Positions 1-53,499 are shown, numbered from the stretch's first letter. The stretch is DNA of 64,000 nt from Vicinamibacteria bacterium (GCA_964291235.2 OZ219816.1:768001-832000); one strand, 5' to 3'. Translations and numbers: made by a program. Notes: generated by a model from the sequence alone, not told the origin.

Positions 1-2
1 TT

Positions 3-728
3 GGCGGATTCTTCCTGACCTTCGCGACGCACGGTGCGGATCAGTACCTGGCGCAGCGCCTGCTTGCCGCTCGCTCGCTCCGCCATGCGCAGGCGGGCCT
101 GGTGCTCTCCGGGTTCGGAGCCCTGCTCCAGTTCGGACTGTTCCTCGGCATCGGAGCCTGGCTGTGGCACTACTACGGCGGCCGGGAGTTCGCCCGGCCG
201 GACGAGGTACTGCCGACTTTCGTTGCGGAAAACCTGTCGGGGGCGGCCGCCGGAATCACTCTCGCGGCGGTGGTGGCGGCCGCGCTCTCGCCTTCGCTCG
301 TCAGCCTGGCCTCCACCACGGTGCGGGATTTCTGGCTCCCCTGGAAGCGGCGTCAGGAAACCGCTGGAGAGCGGGCGGGGGACGACTCCGCACAGGTTCG
401 GGTGGGCCGCCAGTTCGTGGTGGTGTGGGGCATCGTGCAGACGGCGGTGGCGCTGGCTGCCCAGCGGGCCCCCTCGGCCCTTGAGGCCGGGCTCTCCATC
501 CTTTCCTACGCCTCGGGTCCCACCGTGGGCGCTTTCCTGCTGGCGGTTTTCGCGCGGCGAACCCCGAGCGGCGCGGTGCTGATCGGGATGGCCGGCGGCT
601 TTGCGGCGCCGGCGGCGATCCGGCTGGCCGGATTCCCCCTCGCCTGGACCTGGGACGTTATGGTGGGCTCGCTTGCCACCTTCGCGGTGGGTTTGCTACT
701 CAGCCGCTCCGGCAGGCGTGAGCCGTGA
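3..728 (+). CDS. Sodium:solute symporter (SSS family), 5'-truncated by the window edge
   Basis: The frame is open from base 3 (GGFFLTFATHGADQYLAQRLLAAR, SSS 'DQ..QR.L' motif), followed by hydrophobic TM helices. The stop overlaps the next start (GTGA). Confidence 0.85.
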   Translation, partial: GGFFLTFATHGADQYLAQRLLAARSLRHAQAGLVLSGFGALLQFGLFLGIGAWLWHYYGGREFARPDEVLPTFVAENLSGAAAGITLAAVVAAALSPSLVSLASTTVRDFWLPWKRRQETAGERAGDDSAQVRVGRQFVVVWGIVQTAVALAAQRAPSALEAGLSILSYASGPTVGAFLLAVFARRTPSGAVLIGMAGGFAAPAAIRLAGFPLAWTWDVMVGSLATFAVGLLLSRSGRREP

Positions 729-2269
729 CCAACTACCGGATGATTCTCGCCGCCTTTCGCTCCTGGCGGACGCTGTCGGTCACGCTGCTCTCGTTCTCCT
801 CGGGGATTCCGCTCGGCCTCGTCTGGTTCGCGATTCCCGACTGGATGCGCGACATCGGGGTGGACATCCGCATCGTTGGACTTTTCAACCTGGCGCAGAT
901 CCCGTGGGCGTTCAAGATCCTCTGGTCTCCCTTCATGGACCGCTACGTGCCGGGCTTCTGGGGCCGGCGACGCGGCTGGATGGCGGTCACCCAGGTGGCG
1001 CTCCTGGGCCTGTGCCTCCTGCTTGGCGGCGTCGGAGATCACCCGGACGCCATCTGGGTTGTCGCAGCGTTGGCGCTGGCGGTGGCGATTGCGTCGGCTT
1101 CCCAGGACATCGTGGTTGATGCCTACGCGGTGGAGGTGCTCCGTCCCGAAGAGCACGGAGTCGCGGTGGGCGCCCGGGTGGCGCTTTACCGGGCGGCCAT
1201 GGTGGTCGCCGGGGGCGGGGCGATCAGCGCCGCGGCCCTTTTCGGCTGGGGGGTGGTGAACGCGGTGCTGGGCCTGCTCTTCCTGCCGCTGCTGCTCGTG
1301 ACCTGGCGCGCCCCCGAACCGGAGGAACGCGTCGATCCGCCCGGGACCCTGCGGGACGCGGTCTGGAAGCCGTTCCTCGAGGCGCTCTCCCGGCCCCGGG
1401 CCTTCGAGATTTTCGCTTTCGTTTTCTTCTACAAGTTCGCCGACAACCTCGCCCAGTCCCTCACCCGGCCGTTCCTGATAGACATGGGCTACGGCGCCGG
1501 CCACCGAGGGATCGCGCTCGCCACCGTGGGAGCGGTGGCGACCATCGTCGGGACCTTCGCCGGCGGGCTGTTCACCACCATCGCCGGGCTCGGGCCCGCG
1601 CTGTGGGCCTTCGGCGCGCTCCAGATCTTCTCCAACCTCGGTTACTTCTTCGTTGCCGGCGCCGACGGGAGCCTCGCCTGGATGTACGGAGCTTCCGCGT
1701 TCGAGCTGTTGACCGGCGGGCTCGGCACCGGGGCGTTTTCCGTGCTGTTGCTGCGGATCACCGAGAAGCGTTTTTCGGCGACGCAGTACGCTCTGTTCTC
1801 CGGGCTCTTTGCGCTGCCTCGCCTCCTCGCCGGCCCCTTTAGCGGGTTCGCGGTGGACGCGCTGGGCTGGCGGACCTTCTTCTTGTCCACCATGGCGATG
1901 GGGATTCCGGGGCTCATCCTGCTGCACCGGTTTTCCCCGCTCGGGGTCCGCGATCCGCGGATCGGTCTCGGCCGCGGCGAAGAACCCGATGCGCCTCGTC
2001 TTTCGTCCAGCCTTGCCGGGCGTTTCGGCCTCTCGGCGCTGCTCGGCGGCGGCGCGGTCTTCGGATTCGCCGTCGTGCTGGGCGCTCTCAAGGCCATGCG
2101 GGTCGATCCCGGGTCCGGCTTCTCGCTGGCCGCGGGGCTCGCTCCAATCCTGAACCCGGTTTCCTTCGCCGACTGGGTTCAGGTCGGGGGGATTGTGGTG
2201 CTGGGCCTGATCGCGGGACTGTTCGGAACCGCCTTCGCGGCCGCCCGGAGAACCCGCTCAGCGGGCTAG
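725..2269 (+). CDS. ampG: AmpG-like MFS muropeptide permease
   Basis: Motifs FSSGIPL, KILWSPFMDRY, GRRRGW, ASQDIVVDAY and FSATQYALFS are typical of AmpG. Confidence 0.85.
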   Translation: MTNYRMILAAFRSWRTLSVTLLSFSSGIPLGLVWFAIPDWMRDIGVDIRIVGLFNLAQIPWAFKILWSPFMDRYVPGFWGRRRGWMAVTQVALLGLCLLLGGVGDHPDAIWVVAALALAVAIASASQDIVVDAYAVEVLRPEEHGVAVGARVALYRAAMVVAGGGAISAAALFGWGVVNAVLGLLFLPLLLVTWRAPEPEERVDPPGTLRDAVWKPFLEALSRPRAFEIFAFVFFYKFADNLAQSLTRPFLIDMGYGAGHRGIALATVGAVATIVGTFAGGLFTTIAGLGPALWAFGALQIFSNLGYFFVAGADGSLAWMYGASAFELLTGGLGTGAFSVLLLRITEKRFSATQYALFSGLFALPRLLAGPFSGFAVDALGWRTFFLSTMAMGIPGLILLHRFSPLGVRDPRIGLGRGEEPDAPRLSSSLAGRFGLSALLGGGAVFGFAVVLGALKAMRVDPGSGFSLAAGLAPILNPVSFADWVQVGGIVVLGLIAGLFGTAFAAARRTRSAG

Positions 2270-2280
2270 ATTCCCGGTGG

Positions 2281-4464
2281 ATGCACCGGGTTCGCTTTGG
2301 GATTGTTGTCCTTGTTGCCCTCGGTTGGGCTCTGCCCGCATCGGCCTTCAGGGCGAGGGTCGTGCTCGGGAGCGGAGAGCCGGCAGCGGGAGCGATCGTC
2401 CAGGTTCTCGGACACTCCGGCTCAGCGGTCACCGACGCCGATGGCCGGTTCGAATGGCTTCCGGACCCGGCACCTCCTTTCCACGTGCTCGTGGTGCTTC
2501 CCGGAGACCGCTACACCTCGCCGGTCCTCATCGAGTCGTTCGACGCGCACGATCTGGAGATCCAGGTCGAAGCGCTCGCTCTCCAGGAGAGCGTCACCAT
2601 CACGAGCGGCGTCGTGCCGCACACCGAGGCGACGCCGGGCAGCGCTCCCGCCGTCATTTCCGGCGAGGCGATTCGGGTCCGGCAGGCTCCGCGGCTCACC
2701 GACGTTCTGGAGGCCGTCCCGGGAGCTGGCCGCAGTAGTGATCTGCACGCGGGCGTCCCTTCGATCCGCGGCCTTTCACGGGGGCGCACAGTGCTCCTGC
2801 TCGACGGGGCCCGGGTCTCCTCGGAGCGCCGCGCCGGCGCCAGTGCGACGTTCCTGGATCCTTTCTTTCTGGACGCCGTTGAAGTGGTCCGGGGGCCCTC
2901 CTCGGTGTCCTACGGGTCGGACGCCTTCGGGGGAGTCATCCACGCCCGGACCCGCCGGCCCGTTCCCGACGCACCGTTCAGCGCGCGCGCCCGCGGCACG
3001 TTGGGAAGGGGACTCCCGGAGGCGAGCTTCGGCGCGGAGGTCAGCGGTTCCGCTCTCGGGACCGGATTCCTGGCCCAGGTGCGGCGGCGCGTGTTCTCCG
3101 ACTACGAGAGTCCCGAAGGCCGGGTTGCCGGTTCTGGAGCCGAGGACTACGGGATGCTCCTGCGCGGCGTGCGCGAAGTCGGCGGGGGCCTTCTCGGGTT
3201 GGGCCTCCAGCTGGACGCCGGACGCGATGTTGGACGGCCACGGCGGACGGAGGCCTTTACTTCGTATCCGCTCGAGGACTCGGCGCGACTGGTGGCCGAC
3301 TACCAGTTGTTGCCTCGCTGGGGGTTCGCGCGGCTGGATGCCACGGGTTTCCTCGGCGCGCACCGGCTGCTGACCCGGCGGGAACTGGGACCGGAGGCCA
3401 CCGACTCGGAAGTCGCCGCGCACGACTTCATGCTACGGGGCCGCGGAGTTCGTCCCCTGGGGCAGGGGCGACTCGAACTGGGAGCGGAGTTCCTCAGCCG
3501 CTTCGGGCTGTATTCGGAAACCCGCGGAGGGGTGGACAGTCCGTTCCTGAATGAGACGGCGCTCCGTTCCGGCCTGGATGGCGCCCTGCGCCGGGAAGCG
3601 TCGGTGTACGGCCACGCCGAAACTTCCCTGGCGCGTCGCCTCGGCGGGAGCGCCGGAGCCCGCCTTTCCGCGGTGGCAACGCGCTCGGGCGCCGTCGCGG
3701 GCGGTCCCGGCCATGCCACGAACCACGCTGCGCTCAGCGGGTTCCTCGCACTCCGCGCCGACCTCTGGCGCGGGTTCGCCCTCACCGGACAACTCTCCCG
3801 TGGGTTTCGCGATCCGACGTTGTCCGACCGCTATTACGCGGGCCTGAGCGGTCGTGGAATCGTGCACGGGAATGCCGATCTCCGTCCCGAGCGCTCGCTC
3901 CAATCGGACGTATCCCTTCGCTATGACGGGGACGGTCTGCACGGCGGCTTCTATGCCTACCGCTACCGGATCTCCGACCTCGTTGAGCGGTTTGAAGAAG
4001 GCGCCGACCTCTATTTCTTCCGCAATCGCGGCGAGGCTCTGCTCTCCGGTGTCGAGTTCGAACTCCAGTTCGGAAATCCCGCGGACCGCTTCCTGCTGGA
4101 CCTTTCGGGCGGGGTCACCCGGGGCGAGACGCCGGATGGGATGGCCCTTGACGGTGTGCCGCCAGCCAGCTTCCGCGCGGGATTGCGGCGGCGCCTGCGC
4201 CCGCGCAGTTTCGCCGAGGTCGTCCTGCTGGCATTCGCCACGGATAGCGACCCCGGGCCCACGGAGGCGGCGATGGATGCCTATGCCCGTCTCGATGCGG
4301 CTCTGGGTTTCCCGTTGAGCGGCGGTGCGGAACTCCGCTTGTCCGGCCGGAACCTCCTGAACGCTGCGTATCCGATCAGCGCCGACGCGCGCTCGGTCCT
4401 GGCGCCGGGCCGCAGCCTGGTCGGAACGATCGTCTGGACCCTGGGCGCTTCGTCCGGGCCCTAG
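2281..4464 (+). CDS. TonB-dependent outer-membrane receptor
   Basis: Signal peptide, carboxypeptidase-regulatory-like N-domain, plug motifs (SIRGL, LLLDG, VEVVRGPSSVSYGSDAFGGVI), GNADLRPERS and a C-terminal NLLNAAY...PGR. Confidence 0.9.
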   Translation: MHRVRFGIVVLVALGWALPASAFRARVVLGSGEPAAGAIVQVLGHSGSAVTDADGRFEWLPDPAPPFHVLVVLPGDRYTSPVLIESFDAHDLEIQVEALALQESVTITSGVVPHTEATPGSAPAVISGEAIRVRQAPRLTDVLEAVPGAGRSSDLHAGVPSIRGLSRGRTVLLLDGARVSSERRAGASATFLDPFFLDAVEVVRGPSSVSYGSDAFGGVIHARTRRPVPDAPFSARARGTLGRGLPEASFGAEVSGSALGTGFLAQVRRRVFSDYESPEGRVAGSGAEDYGMLLRGVREVGGGLLGLGLQLDAGRDVGRPRRTEAFTSYPLEDSARLVADYQLLPRWGFARLDATGFLGAHRLLTRRELGPEATDSEVAAHDFMLRGRGVRPLGQGRLELGAEFLSRFGLYSETRGGVDSPFLNETALRSGLDGALRREASVYGHAETSLARRLGGSAGARLSAVATRSGAVAGGPGHATNHAALSGFLALRADLWRGFALTGQLSRGFRDPTLSDRYYAGLSGRGIVHGNADLRPERSLQSDVSLRYDGDGLHGGFYAYRYRISDLVERFEEGADLYFFRNRGEALLSGVEFELQFGNPADRFLLDLSGGVTRGETPDGMALDGVPPASFRAGLRRRLRPRSFAEVVLLAFATDSDPGPTEAAMDAYARLDAALGFPLSGGAELRLSGRNLLNAAYPISADARSVLAPGRSLVGTIVWTLGASSGP

Positions 4465-4690
4465 CAGCCTCCGGACAAAGGCACCCGGCATGCCCGAGCC
4501 AAGAGGGAAGGGGGCCGGGCAAACCCGTCCCCCGTCCCTCTCGCTCCGGGGTCCGTGCGCGGTTGTCGCCCCGCTCCGGAAAGAAACAGCGGTTCATCCG
4601 GTCTGAACCGGCCCCCCGCCGGGAGGCCGGGCCCCACCGGGAGAACCGGGCCGGCCCCCAGGCCGGCATAGCGGTCCGCAGCTCCGCCGG
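4461..4690. repeat. Degenerate composite repeat element downstream of the TonB receptor
   Basis: Begins CTAG-CAGCCT on the stop codon, like the element at 58886. Contains ccccaccgggagaaccgggccggcccccaggccggcatagcgg, similar to the repeats at 52426 and 62308. Confidence 0.55.
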
Positions 4691-4799
4691 CAGCGACGCC
4701 GTTCGTCGGCATCGCTTCGGTCTCGGTCGGTGCGCCACCGGGCGCGATGGCGCCCCAAGCAGCGTGTTCACGCGTCGGGAACCCATCAGGACACGCAGA

Positions 4800-5125
4800 C
4801 GTATGCGTAACTATCACGATCGTGACGATAGGTGTGTGCCCGCTGTTGCCAATATATCGACAACCATCGGTGACTGCGGTATTCGCAAACCGGTCGAGTC
4901 CACTGACATTCGTATGTGACCTGTCGCAATGACACCTGTTACAGGGCAGAGATCATGGACATTTGGAGGTTTGGGAGCGACTGAACCGGACTATTGCTGT
5001 GAGACAATTCAGTTACGTCCTACACAACCAAACAACCTTTTGTCTCGCACGTCGGATGTTGTTGTTCTGTGCGATATGTGACATGTGAAATAGACACGCG
5101 GTGACGTTGCGATGAGAACAGAACG
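4800..5125 (+). promoter_or_regulatory. AT-richer leader of the two-gene cassette with several inverted repeats
   Basis: Perfect palindrome TCACGATCGTGA (4814-4825), imperfect palindrome TGTGAC-CT-GTCGCA (4915-4928), and inverted pair TGTGAGACAA (4998-5007) / TTGTCTCGCA (5040-5049). Confidence 0.5.
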
Positions 5126-6820
5126 ATGAATCTCACAGTGTCGGAACTGGCTCTGGCGGTGGGGAAGAGCGAAAACTATGTGCGCCAACACATTCATCGC
5201 CGTCACTTGACCGTGCGCCGCACTGGTCGCGCCGTGCAGGTGCCACTCGACGAGGCGGTGAAATGGGCGGGAACGCGCGGTCTGTCGTTTACCCCACCAA
5301 AACGGATCAGCCTCACGCTGCTCGATCAGGACGAACGGATCGGAAGGCTGACGGTTCTGGTGTGGTCCCTTCCGGACGGACGCTCACGCAACCTGCTCAC
5401 CCTGATGCGTCATCGCAAGCCCGAGGCCCTGGGGCCGTGGTCAAAGGAGCCCGATGCCCTCTGGACTGCGGAGGAACTCGGTGACGACCTGAGCCTGCTC
5501 ACCTTCAATGCGCTCTATCCGGAGTGTCTGGAGCATCTCGACTGCATTCGCAAAACGGGATCGATTGAAGCGCACGGGAAACAAATTCACTACGCCCTGG
5601 AAGGCGACCCGAGAACCCACTGGGCCTATCGGGACTACCGGCGTCGTTCGGACGCTTCCATCCGGAGTCCGTTCTCGATGCACAGCGCTGCGATCACGGA
5701 GTACTGGAGTTTTGAAGACGAACCGCACAAGCGATGGTTGTCGCAAACGCGGATGGAACGTCTGCAACCCGCGCTTCGCCATCTCGGTTTTCCGCTCGAC
5801 CGATGCCCCGAGCGCGTCGGGAACCTGCTCGTCGCCGCCGCTGAAGATGCAATCACCTGTCGCCTGACGGCGCATCAGGACCAGACGCTTCGACTCCATG
5901 TCGATGCCAAGGGACTCCTGCCCGAAACGTATCGGGCGACGGTGTGGGCAAGTCACAGCGGGGACGAGGTGTTGCGCCGGGAGGTGCCCGTGACTACCGG
6001 CCAGACGACGATCGAACTGGTGTCCGAGGTGGACCGCACCGGGTTTGCGGTTTGTCGTGGATTCGACGGACAGTACGTGGACCTGGTGGAGTACCTGGCC
6101 GACAGCGAGGCCCTCTACGGAGGGTGGCAGGGGAGTCGGCCGCCGGCCTGGACCGGGGATCGCACGCCCCGGGTGCCGCCTCGTGGGCAGGCGGGCCGTT
6201 CGGCCGCCGCGGCGCCGCGACATCCCGAAGGGACCACCGGTCGGCTCGACCGGGGCATCCGGCAACAGTGGCTCCACCGGGTGGCGTCCCAGAAGGAAGC
6301 GGGAGCCCGGCGCGAGTCCAGTCTGGTCCGCTTCGGTCCCGGGAGGTTCGACGAGGCGGCGCGGCACTTTCTGCATCTCATTTCGAACGACTCGCAACAC
6401 GCGGGGCCCATCTATCTCGCCGACCCCTGTTTTGTGGGCCACGCGATGGCCGACGAAGTCGCGCATCTCTTCGTGGACACCTGCAATGCGATTCAGCGCC
6501 GGTCGCTCCGGGTTCTTTGCGCCGAAGGCGAACCGGAGGACGCACCCATGTGGTGGGCGCGGTACTTGCGGAAGATCGGGGCGAACGTCACCGTGCGGAC
6601 ATTCGTGAACCGCAGCGACGAACGCGGCTGTTTTCACGACCGGTACCTGATCACTCCCGCCCGCGAAGTCCTGATGACGAATTCGTTCAACGGTTGGAAC
6701 AGGTTCGGGGTGACCTTCGTGAGTCTTCCCTATGGTGTTTACCGCGCCGAGGCGGAGCGGTTATGGGCTGTGGATCCCGGCGCCGCCGCCTCGGACATCC
6801 TCGTTCGCGAGCTTTCGTGA
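5126..6820 (+). CDS. Hypothetical protein with N-terminal excisionase/MerR-like HTH and C-terminal PLD-like domain (VPA1262-like)
   Basis: The N-terminus LTVSELALAVGKSENYVRQHIHRRHL...VPLDEAVKW resembles an HTH_17. The C-terminus IYLADPCF...FHDRYLIT...TNSFNG resembles the HDR variant of the PLD HxK motif. Confidence 0.65.
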   Translation: MNLTVSELALAVGKSENYVRQHIHRRHLTVRRTGRAVQVPLDEAVKWAGTRGLSFTPPKRISLTLLDQDERIGRLTVLVWSLPDGRSRNLLTLMRHRKPEALGPWSKEPDALWTAEELGDDLSLLTFNALYPECLEHLDCIRKTGSIEAHGKQIHYALEGDPRTHWAYRDYRRRSDASIRSPFSMHSAAITEYWSFEDEPHKRWLSQTRMERLQPALRHLGFPLDRCPERVGNLLVAAAEDAITCRLTAHQDQTLRLHVDAKGLLPETYRATVWASHSGDEVLRREVPVTTGQTTIELVSEVDRTGFAVCRGFDGQYVDLVEYLADSEALYGGWQGSRPPAWTGDRTPRVPPRGQAGRSAAAAPRHPEGTTGRLDRGIRQQWLHRVASQKEAGARRESSLVRFGPGRFDEAARHFLHLISNDSQHAGPIYLADPCFVGHAMADEVAHLFVDTCNAIQRRSLRVLCAEGEPEDAPMWWARYLRKIGANVTVRTFVNRSDERGCFHDRYLITPAREVLMTNSFNGWNRFGVTFVSLPYGVYRAEAERLWAVDPGAAASDILVRELS

Positions 6821-8964
6821 TGCCGGGCCAGCCAGGGAGCGAAGCATCTCTGACGGCTGAGTCCCGGGAGGCCGTCTGGCGAATCTTCGGTGCCGGGGCG
6901 GCGCCCGGTACCCCCGGATCGGCATTCGACAACATCGATGCGGTTGTCCGGGAACACGTTCCGGCAGCCGATCAGGATTGCGCCATCGTCACCATCGCCA
7001 GTTGGTTCGACTCCGGAACGCACGTGCACTGGCTGAGGGCGGAATGCGCCGAGCCGGTTGCCGAGCTGGTGCTCGCGGGTGTTGGTCCGCGCCGATCCGA
7101 GGACGCGATCTGGGCCATAGCCTCCATCGGGCTCGATCTTTCGGTTGGAATGCTCCGGCGCCGCTGGTCGGAGGGTGAGATCACTTCCTTTATCGAGGCC
7201 GCGGTCAATACGCTGAACGGGGTCCAGGCCCGGACCCCGGGCGACGCCCACGGCGCGGGAGCCGAGGATGGGGAGTTCAGCGGCTTCCACGAGGCGGTGT
7301 CCCAGGACGGGTTTGTGGGCGCCTTTACCCGCCTGGAGAAGCACAGCCTCGAGCTGGTGAATCAGGGATTGCACCCCGCGGTGGCCAACCTGATCGATCT
7401 GGCGGTCGCACTGTCTCCCGAGCCGTCCCCGCTGCTCATCACCAGGCTGGAGGCTCCGACGATGCAGGCGCGGGCGGCCCGTCGCCTGGTGGCCCGGGGA
7501 GCTTCGAGCGATCCGGGCGTAGCGGCCGGATGGATTGGCGGGGACGCGTCGGATGCTGCGGTCGCGCTGGCGATAATGCACACCCTGAGCGCCATCCGGA
7601 GCCTGGACGAGGGCCGGCTGGTATGGGAGAACCCCGCCGCGCGCGCAGGGAAGCGGGATGACGCTGCCGGTGGCGAAGCCAGACCTCTCGAAGATGTCGC
7701 CGCGAATCTGGTTCACAAACTTCTGGATCGGCTGGGAAGCCTCGATCCGTCCCTTTGCCTGCGCTGGCTCGGCGAACTCCTGAACCAGGCCTCACCGGCG
7801 CTGTCGGCCCCGGGCGACGGAGAAAAACCGCCGCGACTGACGCAACTTGAGCAGGCGTGCACGAGGCTTGCGGTGGGTCTGTTCGCCGAATTCGAGTCCG
7901 CCGATCTGCTCCTGTCGTTCCAGGCGGGGCTGCGGCCGGGCCGCCGGCGACCCTGGGTCCGTCATCAAATGGTGATTGCCCGGGCCATGCACGAACTGGC
8001 CACCGAGCGGGCCGAACAACTCGCCCGGGCTACCGTGGACGAGCATCGGCGGCAGGTGGCGGAGCAGCAGGACGGCTACTACCTGGCGCACGAGTGGAAT
8101 GACTGGAGGGATCGGGAGTGGCTCGAAGGTCTGGGCACGGCGCTTGCCCTGATGAGCGAGGACCTCGATCTTCCGACCTGGGTTGCTGAGGAATGCCGGG
8201 GGTTGCCGCTCACCGTCTGGGACGCGGAGGAGGATCCCGATGGTTTTGCCGTGGCGGAGCAAGTGGCCCAGCACTGGTTTGTGGTGGCGTTGCTCGCGAT
8301 TCCACAGCGGAGCGCGTTCGGCAGACCCTTCGATCGCGCCGCGGTTTGTGCCCTCGCCGAGGCCGTGTGGGCACACTGCCGATTCTGCCGCCAGCATCTC
8401 GAAACCCACCCCGAAGCATCGATTGCCGCGGAGCTGGCAGCCCGCTACGCGATGCGGTACGGACAAGCCGACGATCAATGGACGCTCGACCAGGCGCGCG
8501 GCGAGGGGGTTGGGCCACGGGCCCTTTGCGTGCTGCTGGAGGAGCGGCGAGCCCGAACCACTCCCACGCTTGAAGAGAATCCCGATTACGACGACATGAT
8601 CGTCGCCGAATTGGCACGCATTGCGGCTGAGCGATTCGCCGATGGCGGCCAGTTCGACCTGGAGACCCTGCAGTACTGGGGACAGCTCTGGCTGGCGCTC
8701 GGCGCCGTGGACGAGGCGGAACGGACGGCCCTGGCGATTGTCAGCTTTCCGTTGCGGGCGACCGATCGACAGTACCGGATTCTGGCTCTAAAGCTCCTCG
8801 GGCTGGTCGCCCGGCATCGCAAACCGCGCCAGGAGGTAACGGACTTCGTGGTGCCCCTCTACAACCAGCTCTGGCCCGTTTTTGGGGGAACCCCGACCCA
8901 GGAAGCCGAAGACCGCCAGGAGATCGAGCGGGCCTTCGGAAACTCGAACCTCATCGCGCGCTGA
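6820..8964 (+). CDS. Hypothetical 714-aa, probably alpha-helical protein, translationally coupled to the upstream gene
   Basis: ATG at 6820 overlaps the upstream TGA (GTGATG). Composition is protein-like only from here on (the 5944 extension is shadow frame). No recognisable motif. Confidence 0.7.
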   Translation: MPGQPGSEASLTAESREAVWRIFGAGAAPGTPGSAFDNIDAVVREHVPAADQDCAIVTIASWFDSGTHVHWLRAECAEPVAELVLAGVGPRRSEDAIWAIASIGLDLSVGMLRRRWSEGEITSFIEAAVNTLNGVQARTPGDAHGAGAEDGEFSGFHEAVSQDGFVGAFTRLEKHSLELVNQGLHPAVANLIDLAVALSPEPSPLLITRLEAPTMQARAARRLVARGASSDPGVAAGWIGGDASDAAVALAIMHTLSAIRSLDEGRLVWENPAARAGKRDDAAGGEARPLEDVAANLVHKLLDRLGSLDPSLCLRWLGELLNQASPALSAPGDGEKPPRLTQLEQACTRLAVGLFAEFESADLLLSFQAGLRPGRRRPWVRHQMVIARAMHELATERAEQLARATVDEHRRQVAEQQDGYYLAHEWNDWRDREWLEGLGTALALMSEDLDLPTWVAEECRGLPLTVWDAEEDPDGFAVAEQVAQHWFVVALLAIPQRSAFGRPFDRAAVCALAEAVWAHCRFCRQHLETHPEASIAAELAARYAMRYGQADDQWTLDQARGEGVGPRALCVLLEERRARTTPTLEENPDYDDMIVAELARIAAERFADGGQFDLETLQYWGQLWLALGAVDEAERTALAIVSFPLRATDRQYRILALKLLGLVARHRKPRQEVTDFVVPLYNQLWPVFGGTPTQEAEDRQEIERAFGNSNLIAR

Positions 8965-9055
8965 TGGAACCGGCGCCGGCGCTCTGCCGGCCGAGGTGTC
9001 CCCAAGCGCCGGGTGGCCCCGGAACTTCGCCGTGGAGCCCGTACCATGAACGTCC

Positions 9056-10066
9056 GTGACTGGGCCGGCGACATTCGAGCGGGCGCTCCGGCGCGCGATC
9101 GACCAAAAGACGAAGCCCATAGGGTCGCTCGGCAGGATCGAGTGGCTGGCGAAGCGAATCGCCAGGGTCCAGAGGACGCTGGCGCCGCGGATGGAGCGCT
9201 GCCGGCTGCTCCTGTTCGCCGCCGACCACGGGATTGCGGCAGCCGGAGTCTCCGCCTATCCCCAGACAGTCACTCGCCAAATGGTCGGCAATCTGCTTTC
9301 CGGCGGCGCCGCCGCGAATGTCCTCGCCCGCAGCGTGGGAGTGGAGGTTTCGATCGTGGACGCCGGGGTTGCGGGCGGACCGATCGCACACCCGGACCTG
9401 CTCGATCGGCGGATAGGGAACGGGACGCGGAATGCTGCCGAGGGTCCCGCGATGACCCCCGCGCAGCGGGAAGCCGCCATCGAGTGCGGCGAGCTCCTGG
9501 GATCCGAAGGCGACAGTGAGGCACTTGCCCTTGGCGAGATGGGGATCGGCAACACCTCGTCCGCCGCTCTCGTGGCTCACAAACTGCTCGGGATTGACCT
9601 CGATGAGCTGGTGGGCCCGGGATCCGGGCTCGATGGGGTCGGCGTCCACCACAAGCGGCAAGTACTCCGCCGGGCGGCGGTTCGCACTCCCTCTCCCCTC
9701 GCCGCCGGCCCCGCCCTGGCCGAGTACGGCGGGTTTGAGATCGCGATGATGGCGGGGGCGATTCTCGGTGGAGCGTCCGCGGGGCGTCTCGTTCTCGTGG
9801 ACGGCTACATCGCGACTGCCGCTGCCGCCGCGGCGCTCTCGATCCGTCCGGAAATCCGGACGACCCTTGTCTTTGCGCATCGCTCCGCCGAGCCTGGGCA
9901 TGACCTGATGCTGCAAGCGCTCGACGTGCTGCCGCTCCTCGACCTGGGGATGCGTCTCGGCGAAGGGACAGGGGCCCTCCTGGCCTGGCCCGTGGTCCGT
10001 GCCGCTGCCGCGATGCTCCGGGAGATGGCAAGCTTCGACGATGCCGGGATCAGTGGGCCGGTATGA
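9056..10066 (+). CDS. cobT: Nicotinate-nucleotide--dimethylbenzimidazole phosphoribosyltransferase
   Basis: KTKPIGSLGRIE, FAADHG, GEMGIGNTSSA and LGMRLGEGTGA. Confidence 0.95.
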   Translation: MTGPATFERALRRAIDQKTKPIGSLGRIEWLAKRIARVQRTLAPRMERCRLLLFAADHGIAAAGVSAYPQTVTRQMVGNLLSGGAAANVLARSVGVEVSIVDAGVAGGPIAHPDLLDRRIGNGTRNAAEGPAMTPAQREAAIECGELLGSEGDSEALALGEMGIGNTSSAALVAHKLLGIDLDELVGPGSGLDGVGVHHKRQVLRRAAVRTPSPLAAGPALAEYGGFEIAMMAGAILGGASAGRLVLVDGYIATAAAAAALSIRPEIRTTLVFAHRSAEPGHDLMLQALDVLPLLDLGMRLGEGTGALLAWPVVRAAAAMLREMASFDDAGISGPV

Positions 10067-10824
10067 GCGCGTTGACCCGCGAGCTGGTGCTCTTCCGGTT
10101 GGCGGTGCAATTCCTCACGCGGCTGCCGGTCGGTGACATCGCTGCTTTCACGCCGGAGCTCCTCGGCGCCGCCCGCCGCTATTTCCCGGCTGTGGGTGCC
10201 CTGGTCGGTGGGCTGGGGGCGCTCGGCTACGTCGCAGCGGCGACGGTTTTTCCCCCGTCCATCGCGGCGCTGGCAGCCACCGCCATTACGCTGTTGGCCA
10301 CCGGCGCGTTCCACGAAGACGGACTCGCGGACACGTTCGACGGTTTCGGAGGTCGCGACCGGGAAGCCGCGCTGGCGATCATGCGGGACAGCCGGGTCGG
10401 AAGTTACGGAATGGCGGCGCTCGGGCTCGCCCTGGCCTTCAAGGTGGCCGCGCTCGCCAGTCTTCCCGTCGCTGCCGCGGCTGGTGGCCTGGTGAGTGCT
10501 CACGGGCTTTCTCGTCTCTCCGCGCTCCTGGCGGCCCGAACCTCCCGTTACCTCCGGGACGGGGGCGCTGGAGAGCTCCTTCGCGGCGGTATCGGCGTGG
10601 GCGGGAGCTTGCTTGCCGGTTTGACCGGACTGGCCTGTTTCGGCGTGACGGCTGCTGTCTCGATTCCGGCGGCCCTCACCGGACTCGCCGGACTGGCGCT
10701 TGGCCACCTGTTCATGCGTCGCCTCTACGAACCGCGCTTCGGTGGGCACACCGGCGACACTCTCGGGGCCGTCCAGCAGGTCAGCGAAGTCGGGTTCTAT
10801 CTCGGGGTCGCGGTGTGGCTCTGA
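10063..10824 (+). CDS. cobS: Adenosylcobinamide-GDP ribazoletransferase
   Basis: QFLTRLP, TGAFHEDGLADTFDG, IMRDSRVGSYG and GGHTGDTLGA. Confidence 0.95.
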   Translation: MSALTRELVLFRLAVQFLTRLPVGDIAAFTPELLGAARRYFPAVGALVGGLGALGYVAAATVFPPSIAALAATAITLLATGAFHEDGLADTFDGFGGRDREAALAIMRDSRVGSYGMAALGLALAFKVAALASLPVAAAAGGLVSAHGLSRLSALLAARTSRYLRDGGAGELLRGGIGVGGSLLAGLTGLACFGVTAAVSIPAALTGLAGLALGHLFMRRLYEPRFGGHTGDTLGAVQQVSEVGFYLGVAVWL

Positions 10825-11312
10825 CACTTGTCCGTCACACCCGGCCGGCCTGGGATGCCGGAGTCTGTTACGGGCGAACCGACATCGGCGTGGCCTCCAG
10901 CTTCCCCGACGACGCGCGCGCGGTGATCCGGCGCCTGACGGCGCCCGACCGCCTTGTTTCCAGCCCCCTCCTTCGTTGTCGGGCGCTCGCCGAACGCATT
11001 GGGGCGGCCTTCAACCTCCGCCCGGCCTTCGACGATCGACTCCAGGAGCTGGACTTTGGCGCATGGGAGGGACGACGCTGGAAGGAAATCGCCCGCGCGG
11101 AGCTGGACGCCTGGGCGACCGACGTGCTGCACGCCTGTCCCCACGGCGGCGAGAGCGTCGCCCGGATGGCGGTCCGGGTGGGGGAAGCGCTCGCCGACCT
11201 GCGGGCGCGGGAGGGGTCGTGCGTGGTGGTCACGCACGCTGGCGTGATCCGGATAGCCAGCGGGCGCCGTTGGGATGCGAATATCCCCTACGGCGCGACC
11301 TGCCACCTCTGA
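10815..11312 (+). CDS. cobC: Alpha-ribazole phosphatase-like histidine phosphatase
   Basis: LVRHT, SSPLLRC, ELDFGAWEG, GGES and VVTHAGVIR, within the cob cluster. Confidence 0.85.
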   Translation: MALTLVRHTRPAWDAGVCYGRTDIGVASSFPDDARAVIRRLTAPDRLVSSPLLRCRALAERIGAAFNLRPAFDDRLQELDFGAWEGRRWKEIARAELDAWATDVLHACPHGGESVARMAVRVGEALADLRAREGSCVVVTHAGVIRIASGRRWDANIPYGATCHL

Positions 11313-11348
11313 GAACCAATTGAGGGCGCGAGTGCTGAAAATGTCACG

Positions 11349-11963
11349 ATGACCGATAGCAACGATCAGGGCCGCGCCCACCAGGCGCGAATGCGGACGC
11401 TCCAGGCGGAGGTCCGGAAAAAGCGCGCCACCGCGACGGACCCGGGCCGGGGTCTCGTGCTGGTCCACACCGGAGACGGCAAAGGCAAGTCCAGTTCCGC
11501 CTTCGGGGTCGTCGCGCGATCGCTGGGTTGGGGGCGCCGGGTCGGGGTGGTCCAGTTCATCAAGGGCAACTGGAAGACCGGCGAGCGCCAGTTCTTCAGC
11601 CGCTTTCCGGAGGCGGTGACCTGGCGAACGATGGGCGAGGGGTTCACCTGGGACACGCAGGACCGGGACCGCGACATGGCGGTCGCGGAGGAGGCCTTTG
11701 CTGCCGCGCGGGCGATGCTGTCCTCGGGCGACTACGACCTGGTCGTCCTTGACGAGATCAACGTGGTGATGAGCTATGGCTATCTGGACTCCGGAACCGT
11801 CTTGAAGGGCCTCGACGCGCGCGCCGGGCGCACGAGCGTCATCCTGACGGGACGCGGCGCGCTGCCCGAGGTCATGGACCATGCCGACCTGGTCACCGAG
11901 ATGCGCGAGGTGAAGCACCCCTTCGCCGCCGGGATCAAGGCCCAGCGCGGCCTTGACTACTGA
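11349..11963 (+). CDS. cobO: Cob(I)yrinic acid a,c-diamide adenosyltransferase (CobO/BtuR)
   Basis: HTGDGKGKSSSAFG, VQFIKG, GEGFTW, LDEIN, LTGR and KHPF. Confidence 0.95.
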   Translation: MTDSNDQGRAHQARMRTLQAEVRKKRATATDPGRGLVLVHTGDGKGKSSSAFGVVARSLGWGRRVGVVQFIKGNWKTGERQFFSRFPEAVTWRTMGEGFTWDTQDRDRDMAVAEEAFAAARAMLSSGDYDLVVLDEINVVMSYGYLDSGTVLKGLDARAGRTSVILTGRGALPEVMDHADLVTEMREVKHPFAAGIKAQRGLDY

Positions 11964-11990
11964 GGATTGCGGAGCTGGCGTTTCGCCGGA

Positions 11991-12542
11991 TCACTGCGGC
12001 GCCGGGCTGCCGCCGGACGCTGGCTTCAACAACAGCGGCAGGCCGGCAGTTACCAGTTCCACGCGGTCCGCGATCGCTGCCACGAGCTGATTGAGCCGTC
12101 CCTGGGCGTCACGAAACTCGCGGGCAAGGGCGTTGCCGGGGGCGATGCCGGCTCCCACCTCGTTGGAGACCAGGATCAGGGCCTGGTCCGGGCCGCCCGC
12201 TGCCGTCCGGATGGCTTGGCACAGTGCGGACGTCTCCCGCTCCAGGGGGCGTCCGTGGTGCATCAGGTTGGAAAGCCAGATGGTGAGGCAGTCCACGACC
12301 ACGACACGGCCAGGTCCGCATGCGGAACGAACCGCCGCGGTCAACTCGAGCGGGGCCTCTACGGTCGTGAAATCCGGAGCGCGATCGCGCCGGTGCCGGG
12401 CGATGCGCGCCGCCATCTCCCCGTCGAGCGGTTCCGCGGTGGCGACGAAGATCTTCTCGGGGGCGCGCGAGTCGGCGGCGAGAGTCAGGGCCCGGGCGCT
12501 CTTCCCCGAGCGGGCGCCGCCGAGAACCAGGGTAACCGTCAT
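11991..12542 (-). CDS. cobU: Bifunctional adenosylcobinamide kinase / cobinamide-phosphate guanylyltransferase
   Basis: LVLGGARSGKS, DGEMAARIARHR, VDCLTIWLSN and VSNEVG. Start placed at ATG 12542. Confidence 0.95.
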   Translation of the reverse strand: MTVTLVLGGARSGKSARALTLAADSRAPEKIFVATAEPLDGEMAARIARHRRDRAPDFTTVEAPLELTAAVRSACGPGRVVVVDCLTIWLSNLMHHGRPLERETSALCQAIRTAAGGPDQALILVSNEVGAGIAPGNALAREFRDAQGRLNQLVAAIADRVELVTAGLPLLLKPASGGSPAPQ

Positions 12543-12664
12543 CTGCCGCAGGCAAGTCTGGAGCAAAGCGGTCGGGCCGGCAAGACGGGATTCTGGTGCT
12601 CATTGGTTGGACCCCGGGCGGAGTGGGGGAGAATTGCGCCGATGCCCGTACGTTTACCCAGCTC

Positions 12665-13429
12665 ATGAGCGAAACGCTGTCGGTGCGGGGCATCACGGTC
12701 ATCGCCGGCCGCACCACGCTGGTGCGGGATGTCTCGTTTGATCTCATCCCGGGCGAGCTCATTGCGCTGATCGGACCAAACGGCGCCGGCAAGACCACCC
12801 TGCTCCGCGCCGCGCTGGGTCTCCTGAAGCGCTTCGGGGGACAGGCGCTGCTCGGAGAACGGGACACTCGCGCGCTCGCTCCGCGGGAACGGGCGCGTCG
12901 TATTGCCTATCTCCCCCAGCTGCGCCCGTTGGTCTGGCCCCAGGCGGTCCGTGATGTCGTCGCGCTCGGACGCTTTTCGCACGGTGCGGTGCCCGGAAAC
13001 CTCTCCCGAGCGGATGCGGAAGCGGTGGACGCGGCGATCGAGGTCTGCGATCTCACGCATCTTCGGGAACGCTCGGCCGCGACCCTCTCCGGCGGCGAGC
13101 GGGCCCGCATGCACTGCGCTCGGGCGCTCGCGGCACGGGCGCCGCTCCTGCTTGCCGACGAACCGATCGCCTCGCTCGATCCGCGCCATCAGTTCCAGGT
13201 GATGGAACTCATCCGGACGTTCGTGGACGAGGGTGGAGGCGCGCTCATCGTGCTGCACGACGTAGGGCTGGCGAGACGTTTCGCCGACCGGTTCCTGTGG
13301 ATGAAGGACGGCGAAATTGTCGCTGACGGTACGGTCCCGGAGACGCTCGACCCCGAACGAATGGAGTCAGTCTTCGGTGTGCGGGCCCGGGTCGAGCGCG
13401 ACCTGGTCGCGATCGAGGGGCCGGCATGA
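12665..13429 (+). CDS. Cobalamin/iron-siderophore ABC transporter ATPase (BtuD/FepC-like)
   Basis: GPNGAGKTT, LSGGERAR, LLADEP and LHD. Start placed at ATG 12665. Confidence 0.9.
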   Translation: MSETLSVRGITVIAGRTTLVRDVSFDLIPGELIALIGPNGAGKTTLLRAALGLLKRFGGQALLGERDTRALAPRERARRIAYLPQLRPLVWPQAVRDVVALGRFSHGAVPGNLSRADAEAVDAAIEVCDLTHLRERSAATLSGGERARMHCARALAARAPLLLADEPIASLDPRHQFQVMELIRTFVDEGGGALIVLHDVGLARRFADRFLWMKDGEIVADGTVPETLDPERMESVFGVRARVERDLVAIEGPA

Positions 13430-14247
13430 GGATCGCGCTGCTGCTGGGGATCCTCGGGGTGCTCTTGTTTCCACCGGCGCCCGCCGGGGCGTCCCCGCCG
13501 CAACGAAAACGGCCGTCGCGGATCGTGAGTCTCGACTACTGCTCCGATCAATTCGTGCTCCGCCTGGCGGACCGCGACCGGATCCTCGCGGTGTCGCCCG
13601 ATGCCGGGAAGAGCTTTTCCTACATGCGGGAGGCGGCGACGGGGTTGCCGCGGGTGCGACCGCGGGCGGAGGACGTGGTGCTGCTGGGGCCCGATCTGGT
13701 GGTTCGCGCCTACGGCGGCGGCCCGAACATCGGTGGTTTCCTGGCGCGCGCCGGGATTGAAATGGCGCAGGTCGAATCCGCGGAGGACCTTGATGGGGTC
13801 AAGCGGGTGCTGCGCGAGATGGCGGAGGCACTCGGCGAGCCGGCGAAAGCGGTCTCCATCATCGCCGATATGGAGGAGCGGGAGGTCGCGCTCGGCCGCC
13901 GGCCGGGAACCGAAACGGTCTTGTACATGACGCCGTCCGGCGTCACCACGGGCCCGGGAACGCTCGTCCACGAAATGCTGCGGGCCGCCGGCTTCCTGAA
14001 TTTCCAGCGCGAGCCGGGGTGGCGGACATTGCCGCTCGAGCGACTTGCCTACGAGCGGCCGGATCGGGTGGCCGCCGCGTTCTTCGTCGGCGATATGAGC
14101 CACTTCGAGGCCTGGAGCGCCATGCGCCATCCGATCGCTCGAGCCCAGTTGCGCGAGCGGCCGGTCACCGCCCTCTCGGGCGCCTGGACAGCGTGTGGGG
14201 GTTGGTTCCTGCTCGACGCTGTCGAGGCGCTGGCCGGGAGCGAATGA
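13426..14247 (+). CDS. Periplasmic corrinoid-binding protein (BtuF-like)
   Basis: Signal peptide, RIVSLDYCSDQ and AEDVVLLGPDLVV, within the cob cluster. Confidence 0.8.
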   Translation: MRIALLLGILGVLLFPPAPAGASPPQRKRPSRIVSLDYCSDQFVLRLADRDRILAVSPDAGKSFSYMREAATGLPRVRPRAEDVVLLGPDLVVRAYGGGPNIGGFLARAGIEMAQVESAEDLDGVKRVLREMAEALGEPAKAVSIIADMEEREVALGRRPGTETVLYMTPSGVTTGPGTLVHEMLRAAGFLNFQREPGWRTLPLERLAYERPDRVAAAFFVGDMSHFEAWSAMRHPIARAQLRERPVTALSGAWTACGGWFLLDAVEALAGSE

Positions 14248-20605: not shown

Positions 20606-20652
20606 CGAAACCGAGGATACCGCCCCGGCCCCGGCCAGCGGTTTGAAGGGAC

Positions 20653-20691
20653 TTGACTTGCGCCCTATGCTTCGATATTATTGGAACTATA
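20653..20691 (+). promoter_or_regulatory. Sigma70 promoter/ArsR operator, copy 1
   Basis: TTGACT-17 bp-TATTAT overlapped by TTCGATATTATTGGAA, the same layout as at 21532. Confidence 0.75.
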
Positions 20692-20940
20692 GAAATGATG
20701 ACTCACCATCCCCCGCGAAACGACTCCGAGACGGCGGGCACGCCTGCCGGCGATCGCCGCCGGCCGGCGCCCAACGGTTCGTTCCATCGCGGAGAGTGGG
20801 AGATGAGGGGACTCGTCGATTGTTGCCGCCAGGGGCCTTCCCGGGTGGTTGCCCAACCGACGACTTTGATGAGCATGGGAAGCCGGGGGCGGATGGGCCG
20901 CCCCTGGCGGCGATGCCTCGAGACCGCCCATCGGCCACCG
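20689..20940 (+). pseudogene. Decayed ArsR paralog (start ATG replaced by ATA, internal deletions)
   Basis: PAPNGSFHRGEWEMRGLVDCCRQGPSRV aligns without gaps to PAPTCSFHLKELKKGGLLSCCRHGRSQI of the intact copies. The 3' end is approximate. Confidence 0.65.
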
Positions 20941-20998
20941 GTTCGCTCGCCGAATCGAGGAACCGGATCACCGCTGCCAGGACGCCCCGAAATAGGGG

Positions 20999-21034
20999 TT
21001 GACTTTGTTCTTTCATTTCAACAATACTGGAAGT
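20999..21034 (+). promoter_or_regulatory. Sigma70 promoter/ArsR operator, copy 2
   Basis: TTGACT-17 bp-CAATAC with TTCAACAATACTGGAA, then ATG GAA. Confidence 0.65.
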
Positions 21035-21484: not shown

Positions 21485-21531
21485 GAGCCGCACCGAGAGT
21501 TCCCCGGGAGACAGAAACAGCTGCCGGACAG

Positions 21532-21567
21532 TTGACTTTTCTCTATTAGTTCGATATTATTGGAAAT
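21532..21567 (+). promoter_or_regulatory. Sigma70 promoter/ArsR operator, copy 3
   Basis: TTGACT-17 bp-TATTAT-7 bp-ATG, overlapped by TTCGATATTATTGGAA. Confidence 0.75.
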
Positions 21568-39895: not shown

Positions 39896-39947
39896 TGGGG
39901 TTCCCTCGAACCTGAGGTGGTCCGACTGCTGGCGAATCTCCCGGACC

Positions 39948-53486: not shown

Positions 53487-53499
53487 CGGGTCCGTCCGT

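Follow-up and report, generated by a model that had tools for sequence, protein, structure and literature searches.

A Probable Juno-Like Two-Gene Defence Cassette in a Vicinamibacteria Genome and Other Uncultured Bacteria

Two adjacent genes at positions 5126–8964 of a 64,000-nucleotide (nt) stretch of DNA from a Vicinamibacteria bacterium (GCA_964291235.2 OZ219816.1:768001-832000) probably form an autoregulated, Juno-like defence cassette. The whole stretch is called the window here, and its mean guanine-plus-cytosine (GC) content is 68.6%. Gene 1 encodes a protein with a helix–turn–helix (HTH) segment, a beta-rich middle and a C-terminal phospholipase D (PLD)-like domain, and gene 2 encodes a helical protein. 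The evidence tips slightly in favour of a self-contained, horizontally mobile two-gene conflict cassette, most likely directed against phages, that is distant kin of the single-gene Juno/VPA1262 system.

In the original prediction, the motif pattern of gene 1 had been matched to the VPA1262 family of island proteins. This family is now reported as a single-gene anti-phage system and renamed Juno in an August 2026 preprint (10.64898/2026.08.01.741415), the only account of it as a defence system in the literature searched. According to that preprint, two gammaproteobacterial VPA1262 proteins, each expressed alone, protected E. coli from phages, and homologs of Juno are spread among Gram-negative genera; its section 12 and its Juno passages give no mechanism. 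Another report (10.1101/2023.03.28.534373) places a VPA1262 gene next to Septu and RloC in the GMT island VPaI-6.

The gene pair and its linkage

The two open reading frames (ORFs) are located where they were first described. In searches at E ≤ 1e-3, with 8000 candidates scored in each, 408 homologs of gene 1 and 83 homologs of gene 2 were found. Nearly all of them are of equal length, and none carries an informative name. According to these searches, both genes are real.

At the junction (...TCGTGATGCCG; also given as ...TCGTGATGCC), the sequence GTGATG is present as originally noted. The true overlap is, however, 1 nt, as one base is common to the TGA of gene 1 (6818–6820) and the ATG of gene 2 (6820–6822), giving TGATG. 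An in-frame GTG is located at 6817. Of 55 related loci, 53 likewise have an overlap of stop and start (−1 nt in 38 loci, −4 nt in four, and −7/−8 nt in 11). Thus, the start of gene 2 at 6820 and the translational coupling of the two genes are well founded.

One scan of species-representative genomes gave 57 loci, all of them in metagenome-assembled genomes (MAGs). In 56 of these loci, the gene that immediately follows gene 1 is a gene 2 homolog, and the exception (L053) ends at the edge of its contig. All flanking ORFs were clustered, and no third gene conserved across phyla was found. Clusters 2–5 were rejected as conserved genes, as they consist of antisense shadow ORFs of gene 1 and gene 2. 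According to the MAG titles, the loci belong to Acidobacteriota, Chloroflexota (Dehalococcoidia, Caldilineaceae), Latescibacterota, Gemmatimonadota, Nitrospirota, Nitrospinota, Binatia, Bacteroidota, Spirochaetia, and Alpha- and Gammaproteobacteria, and the gene pair spans at least nine phyla by these labels. This mix of taxa is typical of marine, especially sponge-associated, consortia. The features of the cassette are listed in Table 1.

Table 1. Coordinates of the cassette and its features in the window
Feature	Position	Strand	Residues	Description
Leader	4751..5125	+		AT-richer; promoter-like site and operator-like repeats
Distal copy of 23-nt direct repeat	4913..4935	+		Candidate operator; TATGTGAC...GACAC; repeat family D1; conserved block in alignment A5
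Sigma-70-like promoter match	4929..4956	+		ATGACA, 16 nt, GATCAT; 9/12, consensus match only
Proximal copy of 23-nt repeat	5075..5097	+		About 30 nt before the start codon; most conserved block in A5 (TGTGACAcaTGAcAtTGACAC)
Gene 1	5126..6820	+	564	ATG start; HTH, two beta-rich domains, disordered linker, PLD-like domain
HTH	5126..5275	+	1–50	Probable excisionase/MerR-type winged HTH; beta-alpha-alpha-beta-beta-alpha in the AlphaFold (AF2) model
Two beta-rich domains	5330..6103	+	69–326	VPA1262_N-like core; AF2 strands 72–167, 188–325
Linker	6104..6262	+	327–379	Pro/Arg/Ala-rich, low confidence; predicted local distance difference test (pLDDT) <50 at 327–350, 352–379
PLD-fold domain	6311..6817	+	396–564	Foldseek against PDB
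Motif 1, P-I-Y-L-A-D-P-C-F	6407..6433	+		P428, Y430, D433 invariant
Motif 2, H504-D505-R506	6635..6643	+	504–506	HxK-like with Arg; invariant in 93, 44 and 39 sequences
Motif 3, S520-x-N522	6683..6691	+	520–522	S invariant, N variable within the close family
GTGATG junction	6817..6822	+		Stop of gene 1 overlaps start of gene 2
Gene 2	6820..8964	+	714	From ATG at 6820; all-helical solenoid partner

Relationship of gene 1 to Juno

Two NCBIfam models represent the VPA1262 family, NF040699 (VPA1262_fam; 1026 positions, cut-off 325 bits) and NF040700 (VPA1262_N_dom; 478 positions, cut-off 80 bits). The gene 1 protein of the window matches NF040700 with 15.9 bits (E 0.0042), and the match is local, covering only the 25 residues 499–523 in the FHDRY region. 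The same model is matched by 30 of 39 diverse full-length family members at E ≤ 0.01 (best E 1.2e-13; best score 50.7 bits for L055, below the 80-bit cut-off), and also by 12 of 25 distant representatives with E-values from 5.8e-14 to 4e-5. In 20 of 22 diverse members the matches are collinear, so that residues of about 90–530 run against profile positions from 38–152 to 350–450, and they span the beta-rich domains and the PLD-like domain. NF040699 is matched partially by four of the 39 members (best E 9.1e-6, at most 23.8 bits). When the family (alignment A4) was compared with HTH-less relatives (A6) using hhalign, residues 69–564 were aligned with a probability of 99.9% and an E-value of 3.1e-35. 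The distance between the family and the model is thus bridged by intermediate relatives. These profile comparisons indicate that the core of gene 1 (residues 69–564) is a remote, sub-threshold relative of the VPA1262 N-terminal domain. The VPA1262 link of the original prediction is thus borne out as remote homology, but not as membership of the family.

A profile of the PLD-like domain was searched against 1.84 billion representatives (E ≤ 1e-3). Only 82 proteins were detected, and the family is rare. Beyond the family of about 565 residues, the matches are proteins of about 480–510 residues without the HTH, short fragments, and a STAND NTPase of 1631 residues (P0282; NPHP3_N, AAA_16). Residues 1472–1599 of P0282 correspond to the H-D-R PLD-like domain (E 3.5e-4), and the DPYF, FHDRY and SxN motifs are kept. 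This suggests that the PLD-like domain is used as an output module in another conflict-type architecture.

The likeness to Juno consists of the collinearity of the gene 1 core with the VPA1262 N-domain model and of the DPxF, H-D-R and SxN motifs. In addition, the gene 1 family is found in defence islands and mobile elements, as is Juno. The two forms differ in several respects. No score of the gene 1 family reaches the curated cut-offs. Gene 1 encodes 564 residues as against about 1026 for Juno, and it has an extra N-terminal HTH with putative cognate operators. It always has, and may need, a separate helical partner of 714 residues without detectable similarity to the Juno model. Finally, the gene 1 family is found only in uncultured MAG lineages, whereas the preprint places Juno homologs in Gram-negative genera.

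Gene 2 was considered as the detached C-terminal half of a Juno protein. None of 68 members of the gene 2 family matches NF040699 at E ≤ 0.1, and the picture of a 'split Juno' is therefore one of lengths and position. The candidate was set aside as a sequence relationship, and it is kept here as an analogy of position and size.

Domains and motifs of gene 1

The AF2 model of gene 1 was obtained from an alignment of 93 rows (pLDDT 77.4; predicted template-modelling score (pTM) 0.47). The N-terminal HTH and the beta-rich middle, both originally predicted, are seen in the model. Residues 72–167 form a sheet-plus-helix domain, and residues 188–325 form a mainly beta domain. The linker that follows is the least conserved block of gene 1 (0.45), and it is overlapped by a stretch with a GC content of 0.774 (6116–6310). 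A long helix is located between the linker and the C-terminal alpha/beta domain (400–564), and most of residues 400–564 have pLDDT values of 79–94.

The C-terminal domain was compared with the PDB using Foldseek, and 38 matches were obtained at E ≤ 1e-3. The matches listed belong to the PLD superfamily except for the NFAT/FOXP3 rows (ranks 7 and 38), and therefore the PLD fold of the modelled domain is supported, in agreement with a check that had been set beforehand. The best match is TrmBL2 (5box_A, E 6.9e-5), and the others include Streptomyces PLD, PLD3, vaccinia F13, FAM83 and BJ-TSA-9, together with the nucleases NucT (6ehi_B, E 1.6e-4, TMt 0.57) and Zucchini (4ggk). Gene 1 matches no Pfam model of the PLD clan at E ≤ 1, including PLDc, and no TrmB model. 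The Pfam model MIT_C is matched only by the distant relatives P0284 and P0281. Searches of PDB sequences with the profiles A1, A3 and A2 gave chance-level matches or none, and a search of the ESM Atlas with residues 66–330 gave nothing usable.

Both motif blocks quoted in the original prediction are present, the first as motif 1 of Table 1 and the second as FHDRYLITPAREVLMTNSFNG at 6632–6694. In 44 diverse C-terminal domains, F403, P428, Y430, D433, H504, D505, R506, S520, W524, F531 and W547 are invariant. Among the distant relatives, H-[DN]-R is found in 24 of 24 and S-x-N in 23 of 24, and DP-x-F is kept in the 21 of 24 proteins whose match covers this motif (one has EP for DP). P0279 is the sole distant protein without a match at motif 1.

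The canonical HKD motif is HxK(x)4D(x)6G[ST]xN, and the spacing in gene 1 resembles it. The sequence of gene 1 is H504-D-R506-(x)4-P511...T518-N-S520-F-N522, in which H-D-R is followed by 13 residues and then by S-x-N. The canonical motif is not matched, as Arg replaces Lys, Pro replaces Asp, and S-x-N is shifted by one extra residue. Gene 1 carries H-x-R and not the H-x-K of PLD-superfamily nucleases. Single-domain PLD nucleases (Nuc/NucT, Zucchini/PLD6 and BfiI type) build one active site by dimerisation. The gene 1 domain shares their fold and contributes a single His-x-basic...Ser-x-Asn motif from each chain, and one complete active site would therefore require a dimer. It differs from these nucleases in the Arg and the Pro at the Lys and Asp positions of HxK(x)4D, in the variable Asn within the close family, and in having no match to Pfam PLDc.

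The TrmB/TrmBL2 regulators, which provide the best structural match, likewise have an N-terminal HTH and a C-terminal PLD-like domain. Gene 1 differs from them in having no sequence or Pfam match to them, in two extra beta-rich domains between the HTH and the PLD-like domain, in the invariant His, Arg and Ser, and in an HTH probably of the excisionase/MerR type. P0284, a distant member of the PLD-like domain superfamily of gene 1 that was detected with the domain profile (E 7.7e-4) and carries all three motifs, matches PADLOC NsnC (Menshen; 5.1e-9), PDC-S05 (6.7e-9) and Pfam MIT_C (8e-9). This link to gene 1 is transitive, and gene 1 itself and 12 diverse relatives give no match to these models. 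Against PADLOC-DB v2.0, gene 1 matches only mad1, weakly and on the HTH (E 0.013; best relative 1e-5), and the gene 2 family gives none in ten proteins (the window protein and nine relatives). The PADLOC check proposed originally therefore returned no model for either protein.

Gene 2 and the predicted complex

The AF2 model of gene 2 (pLDDT 83.8; pTM 0.80) is all helical except for two short strands, in agreement with the helical protein originally predicted. The model shows an alpha-solenoid that belongs to no known family. Foldseek searches of the PDB and BFVD gave only generic alpha-solenoids such as importin-13, Ctr9 and SKI3, with template-modelling (TM) scores of at most 0.32, and the naming of a specific family from structure was therefore abandoned. 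Gene 2 has no match in Pfam or PADLOC and only a chance-level match in NCBIfam (E 0.23). Nothing usable was found for it among PDB sequences or in the ESM Atlas, and neither gene matches PHROGs.

The identities of the relatives to the window pair co-vary between gene 1 and gene 2, with a Spearman coefficient of 0.95 among sequences that are not phylogenetically independent. The conserved stop–start overlap and the co-varying identities argue for a complex of the two proteins. The complex of gene 2 and residues 380–564 of gene 1 was predicted in three runs with three controls. The median interface score (ipSAE) is 0.36, as compared with 0.00 for the best of the three controls; the mark used for ipSAE is reached by 58 of 80 solved complexes and by two of 110 mismatched pairs, and at 0.60 or under it is reached by only seven of the 80 solved complexes, with both of the passing mismatched pairs also in that range. 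At least 62% of the contacts agree between the runs, and the pLDDT of the partner is at least 76. The prediction weakly supports a gene 1/gene 2 complex.

The HTH and the upstream region

The HTH of gene 1 matches Pfam HTH_17 (15.4 bits, E 0.023, cut-off 27) and TIGR01764 'excise' (17.3 bits, E 0.0045, cut-off 28.8) only weakly. The relative P0237 passes the HTH_17 cut-off with 29.7 bits, and TIGR01764 is matched by eight of 39 family members at E ≤ 0.01. The HTH is absent from four loci of Dehalococcoidia/Chloroflexota (L049, L050, L051 and L055), whose proteins begin about 10 residues before domain 2, and gene 1 of L034 is likewise truncated at the HTH. As HTH-less loci exist, the HTH is an accessory module. 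The HTH-less relatives align over residues 69–564, so that the fusion to a conserved core, which had been pointed out from the start, represents a true add-on.

The leader, the 375 nt before gene 1, has a GC content of 51.5%, and the AT-richer leader described originally is thus confirmed. The stretch 4751–5750 is the lowest-GC kilobase in all 64 kb, and gene 1, with a GC content of 64.3%, is the 21st lowest among 624 windows of 1.7 kb. In the leader alignment A5, which contains 12 Acidobacteria loci (the window and 11 relatives), the mean column identity is 73%, and long invariant blocks are observed. The distal copy of the 23-nt direct repeat and the promoter-like −35 hexamer (4929) overlap. 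In the region 4400–9200, two sigma-70-like sites were found as against 0.4 expected from shuffles. Pentamers of the GTGAC/GTTAC type occur six times in the 260 nt upstream of gene 1 in the window, where 0.65 are expected.

In the HTH-bearing loci, the last 80 nt or so upstream of the start codon contain a TTGACA box and, after it, two or three palindromes in tandem, with TGTAAaTTACA as the type; the Dehalococcoidia type is TGTACnGTACA. The palindromes overlap the TTGACA −35 box. They were counted as GTA-N3-5-TAC in the 120 nt upstream of gene 1. Outside the clade of the window, 29 of 35 HTH-bearing loci contain the sequence, 14 of them with at least two sites, and the mean of the 35 is 1.26 per locus as compared with a background of 0.019 per 120 nt. 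Seven of 13 loci in the clade of the window contain it, and this clade uses the array of GTGAC/GTTAC variants. None of the four HTH-less loci has the sequence. As these four are one clade, the co-occurrence of the HTH and the operator counts as one evolutionary event. The co-occurrence suggests autoregulation, and the natural reading of the upstream sequences would be promoter occlusion by the HTH. The self-regulation of gene 1 in the original prediction is thus backed by conserved operator-like repeats.

Locus L026 departs from the common arrangement. The first 48 residues of its gene 1, which comprise the HTH, match in another frame than the rest (10001–10144), pointing to a frameshift or a sequencing error, and no obvious palindromic operator is found upstream.

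An HTH joined to a PLD-like domain could also be a ligand-sensing transcription factor. Gene 1 would then use the PLD-like domain as a non-catalytic pocket, as in the TrmB family or in MIT_C/FAM83-like proteins, and the part left to gene 2 would be that of the product under regulation or of the actual effector. TrmBL2, an HTH and PLD-like DNA-binding protein, is the best Foldseek match, and FAM83 and BJ-TSA-9 are also listed. HxR stands in place of HxK and N522 is variable, a distant relative matches MIT_C, for which the Pfam description says no more than PLD-like domain, and operator-like sites are conserved upstream. However, the HTH is dispensable, as four HTH-less loci retain the core and gene 2, and relatives of about 490 residues are entirely without it. 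Even at about 17% identity, the His, Arg and Ser with their HKD-like spacing do not vary. The same domain is found at the end of a STAND NTPase, where an output domain is expected, and no TrmB model of Pfam matches gene 1. We consider a regulator of this kind unlikely.

Genomic neighbourhoods

Three ORFs on each side of the pair were compared with Pfam in the 44 loci outside the clade of the window. The 247 ORFs were called with a locus-trained, home-made codon-usage score, and the tally was made by hand. Defence or mobile-element domains are carried by 103 of the 247 flanking ORFs, a count that stands without a genome-wide background. The defence domains counted are restriction–modification (RM), toxin–antitoxin (TA), Abi, CAP12-TIR, Cap15, ApeA-HEPN and AAA_15/21, and the mobile domains are integrase, transposase, relaxase and coupling protein. 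At least one such neighbour is found in 43 of the 44 loci; L022 has only DUF4160 and DUF2442. Thus, outside the clade of the window, the pair is located in defence islands or mobile elements, as a check set beforehand had anticipated. In L045 (5203–19658), the order is hsdM, fic, an hsdS–nucleotidyltransferase fusion, the pair, an unknown gene of 589 residues and hsdR, which is a type I RM operon. In L013 (6878–13830), the pair follows the same kind of hsdS–nucleotidyltransferase gene, and the contig ends soon after gene 2.

These neighbours also fit a module for maintenance or competition of mobile elements, such as addiction, exclusion, anti-plasmid activity or recombination directionality, in place of an anti-phage function. 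The matches to TIGR01764 point to an excisionase-type HTH, integrases, transposases, relaxases or a T4 coupling protein adjoin L023, L024, L027, L029, L030, L034, L049 and L057, and TA genes are frequent neighbours. On the other hand, L045, L013 and L037 are inside RM operons with no recombinase among the six neighbours scanned, and the clade of the window keeps the pair with no mobile gene nearby. In addition, related VPA1262 proteins alone protected E. coli from phages according to the Juno preprint, and searches of 72,556 plasmids and, with gene 1, of 50,697 phage records gave no significant match. We consider such a module unlikely.

The setting in the clade of the window is different. The pair is located between transport genes and the cob cluster, as was originally stated. 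A major facilitator superfamily transporter and a TonB-dependent receptor are encoded upstream, and the downstream genes encode CobT, CobS, a CobC-like histidine phosphatase and CobO. No defence or mobile gene is present among the seven flanking ORFs of the window that were scanned. The order of TonB-receptor operon, pair and cobO is syntenic in 13 species-level Acidobacteria, so that synteny, named beforehand as an outcome that speaks against a defence system, was in fact observed inside this clade. From the foreign-looking composition and the mobile contexts elsewhere, we read this as an old acquisition that was fixed in one lineage, and it weakens the picture of a fluctuating island for this genome. 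Such stable retention is unusual for a defence gene and may point to a second role.

The cobalamin genes themselves vary in arrangement. In the window, cobT, cobS and the cobC-like phosphatase gene (9056–11312) are located between gene 2 and cobO. A cobO-like gene (cluster c7) directly follows gene 2 in at least seven of the 12 syntenic relatives, and in the others it is uncalled after gene 2 or the contig ends. The cobT-cobS-cobC block is therefore an insertion or rearrangement specific to this genome.

The conserved position between the TonB receptor and cobO in 13 species-level relatives would also be expected of domesticated housekeeping genes tied to the TonB-receptor and cobalamin genes of this Acidobacteria lineage. 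No terminator-like site is found between gene 2 and cobT, and cobW (L014) and a gene for a B12-binding-domain protein (L052) are among the six scanned flanking genes of their loci. In the other 42 loci outside the clade, however, none of the six flanking ORFs scanned is a cobalamin gene. No Rfam family, the cobalamin riboswitch among them, is matched in the region 1–14000, a conserved leader and a lower GC content set the cassette apart, and in the window, unlike the relatives, cobT-cobS-cobC separate the pair from cobO. A housekeeping role is thus very improbable.

Horizontal mobility of the cassette

Pairs of loci show what is transferred. L029 and L030 have only 9921–13936 in common (89% nt identity), which corresponds to a leader of about 80 nt and both genes, and the common stretch of L013 and L045 is 9778–13846. 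According to these sequence comparisons, the cassette itself is the unit that moves, and it is horizontally mobile. In a gene 1 tree of 54 rows (quick IQ-TREE), the phylum labels are clustered, with 12 changes as compared with a least possible number of eight and a shuffled mean of 27.7. Starred mixed clades consist of Gemmatimonadota, Caldilineaceae and one Vicinamibacterales (100*), and of Latescibacterota, Bacteroidota and one 'Gemmatimonadetes' (96*). Acidobacteriota require three label changes, at least two of which are forced by starred branches. Searches with tblastn gave nothing significant in the plasmids (gene 1, gene 2 and P0251) or in the phage records (gene 1), and the lone match has an E-value of 0.3 over 8% of the query.

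The loci L015 (Latescibacterota) and L016 (Gemmatimonadetes) have about 92% nt identity over the whole 21 kb, including AbiE, the pair, Phd and CAP12-TIR. Either a mis-binned contig or a transferred island is indicated. One label may be wrong, and this pair of loci was set aside as a case of cross-phylum transfer. Their gene 1 sequences (9978–11581) are only 79% identical, so that gene 1 has either diverged or been replaced faster than the DNA around it.

Two loci contain damaged copies. In L043, gene 1 is split, with residues 1–118 at 8125–8478 and residues 134–564 at 10001–11290, and a DDE_5 transposase gene is located between the two halves (8701–9933, minus strand). A second, intact cassette (L044) is present on the same chromosome (OZ250156.1). 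In L027, the setting at 500–13634 resembles a conjugative element, with a TrwB coupling protein, a TrwC relaxase and an integrase. The gene 1 frame has two in-frame stops and a gap of 81 nt to gene 2, and this copy may be decaying.

Proposed mechanism

Several points weigh against a Juno-like defence cassette. All NCBIfam scores are under the curated cut-offs (50.7 of 80 bits at best, 15.9 bits for the window), no Juno-type protein of about 1000 residues is among the 82 matches of the domain profile in the 1.84 billion representatives, and the gene 2 family is without a match to NF040699. No PADLOC model matches gene 1 or gene 2 beyond the weak mad1 match on the HTH. As to catalysis, the HKD Lys is changed to Arg, the canonical Asp is changed to Pro, and N522 is not constant among close relatives. 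A PLD fold need not be catalytic; TrmBL2 is the best Foldseek match, and FAM83 is among the matches. As to regulation, the HTH-less loci are only four and belong to one clade. As to context, the tally of flanking genes has no genome-wide background and depends on a home-made ORF caller, and the synteny in 13 species-level genomes resembles a fixed gene more than a fluctuating defence island. As to spread, the phylum labels come from MAG titles, and L015 and L016, which are labelled as different phyla, are about 92% identical over 21 kb.

The Juno-like defence cassette is nevertheless the explanation we prefer, and the following mechanism is proposed. The core of gene 1, which comprises the two beta-rich domains and the PLD-fold domain with its H-D-R...S-x-N pocket, represents the conserved Juno-like module. 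The PLD-like domain would be the effector, a phosphodiesterase or nuclease, and dimerisation would build one active site from two H-x-R motifs. The translationally coupled solenoid of gene 2 would bind gene 1 as a sensing or regulating scaffold and would take the place of the C-terminal half of about 550 residues in the Juno proteins of about 1026 residues. The HTH, probably of the excisionase type and present in part of the family only, would bind the tandem palindromes overlapping the promoter of the cassette and keep expression low. At this low level, the Juno-like protein would form a complex with the solenoid. On infection or entry of foreign DNA, the trigger would be sensed by the solenoid or the beta-rich domains. 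Cleavage of a phosphodiester substrate, either a nucleic acid or a nucleotide, by the paired H-x-R PLD-like domains would follow and would stop the invader or the cell.

A more specific picture can be put forward only tentatively. The cassette may be an undescribed two-component branch of the Juno superfamily, in which an H-x-R PLD-like phosphodiesterase is both restrained and aimed by a dedicated solenoid sensor and represses itself through the HTH. It may have spread horizontally across nine or more phyla within a single type of uncultured marine consortium and been fixed beside cobalamin genes in one Acidobacteria lineage.

The superfamily, the PLD fold and the logic of defence islands are already known. 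The two-gene form, the fusion of HTH and operator, the definition of the H-x-R motif and the spread across uncultured phyla are new. The cassette shows that the Juno-like core occurs in a shorter protein too, one with strict coupling to a separate helical subunit and, in many cases, with a fused, putatively autoregulatory HTH. The cassette supplies candidate catalytic residues, a separable partner with which sensing and effector roles could be distinguished, and a defined putative operator. The superfamily is extended from Gram-negative isolates to uncultured Acidobacteriota, Chloroflexota, Latescibacterota, Gemmatimonadota, Nitrospirota and others. If the proposed relationship is true, a natural 'split' Juno could reveal how Juno senses and kills.

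Flanking sequences in the window

An Rfam scan of 1–14000 at E ≤ 0.1 gave no match, the cobalamin riboswitch included, and thus no riboswitch is present in the 660-nt gap before gene 1. A tRNA scan of the window found none, and therefore the window has no integration site of the tRNA type. The region 4465–4750, following the TonB-receptor gene, is a GC-rich (74.8%) non-coding stretch with no Rfam match. It contains an inverted repeat with arms of 27 nt (4493–4519 and 4524–4550) and an 18-nt tandem repeat (4614–4649), and it could serve as terminator region for the operon upstream. Other stretches of below-average GC content (0.62–0.645 per kb) are located at about 20250–22250, 39750–41250, 52750–54500 and 55750–56750.

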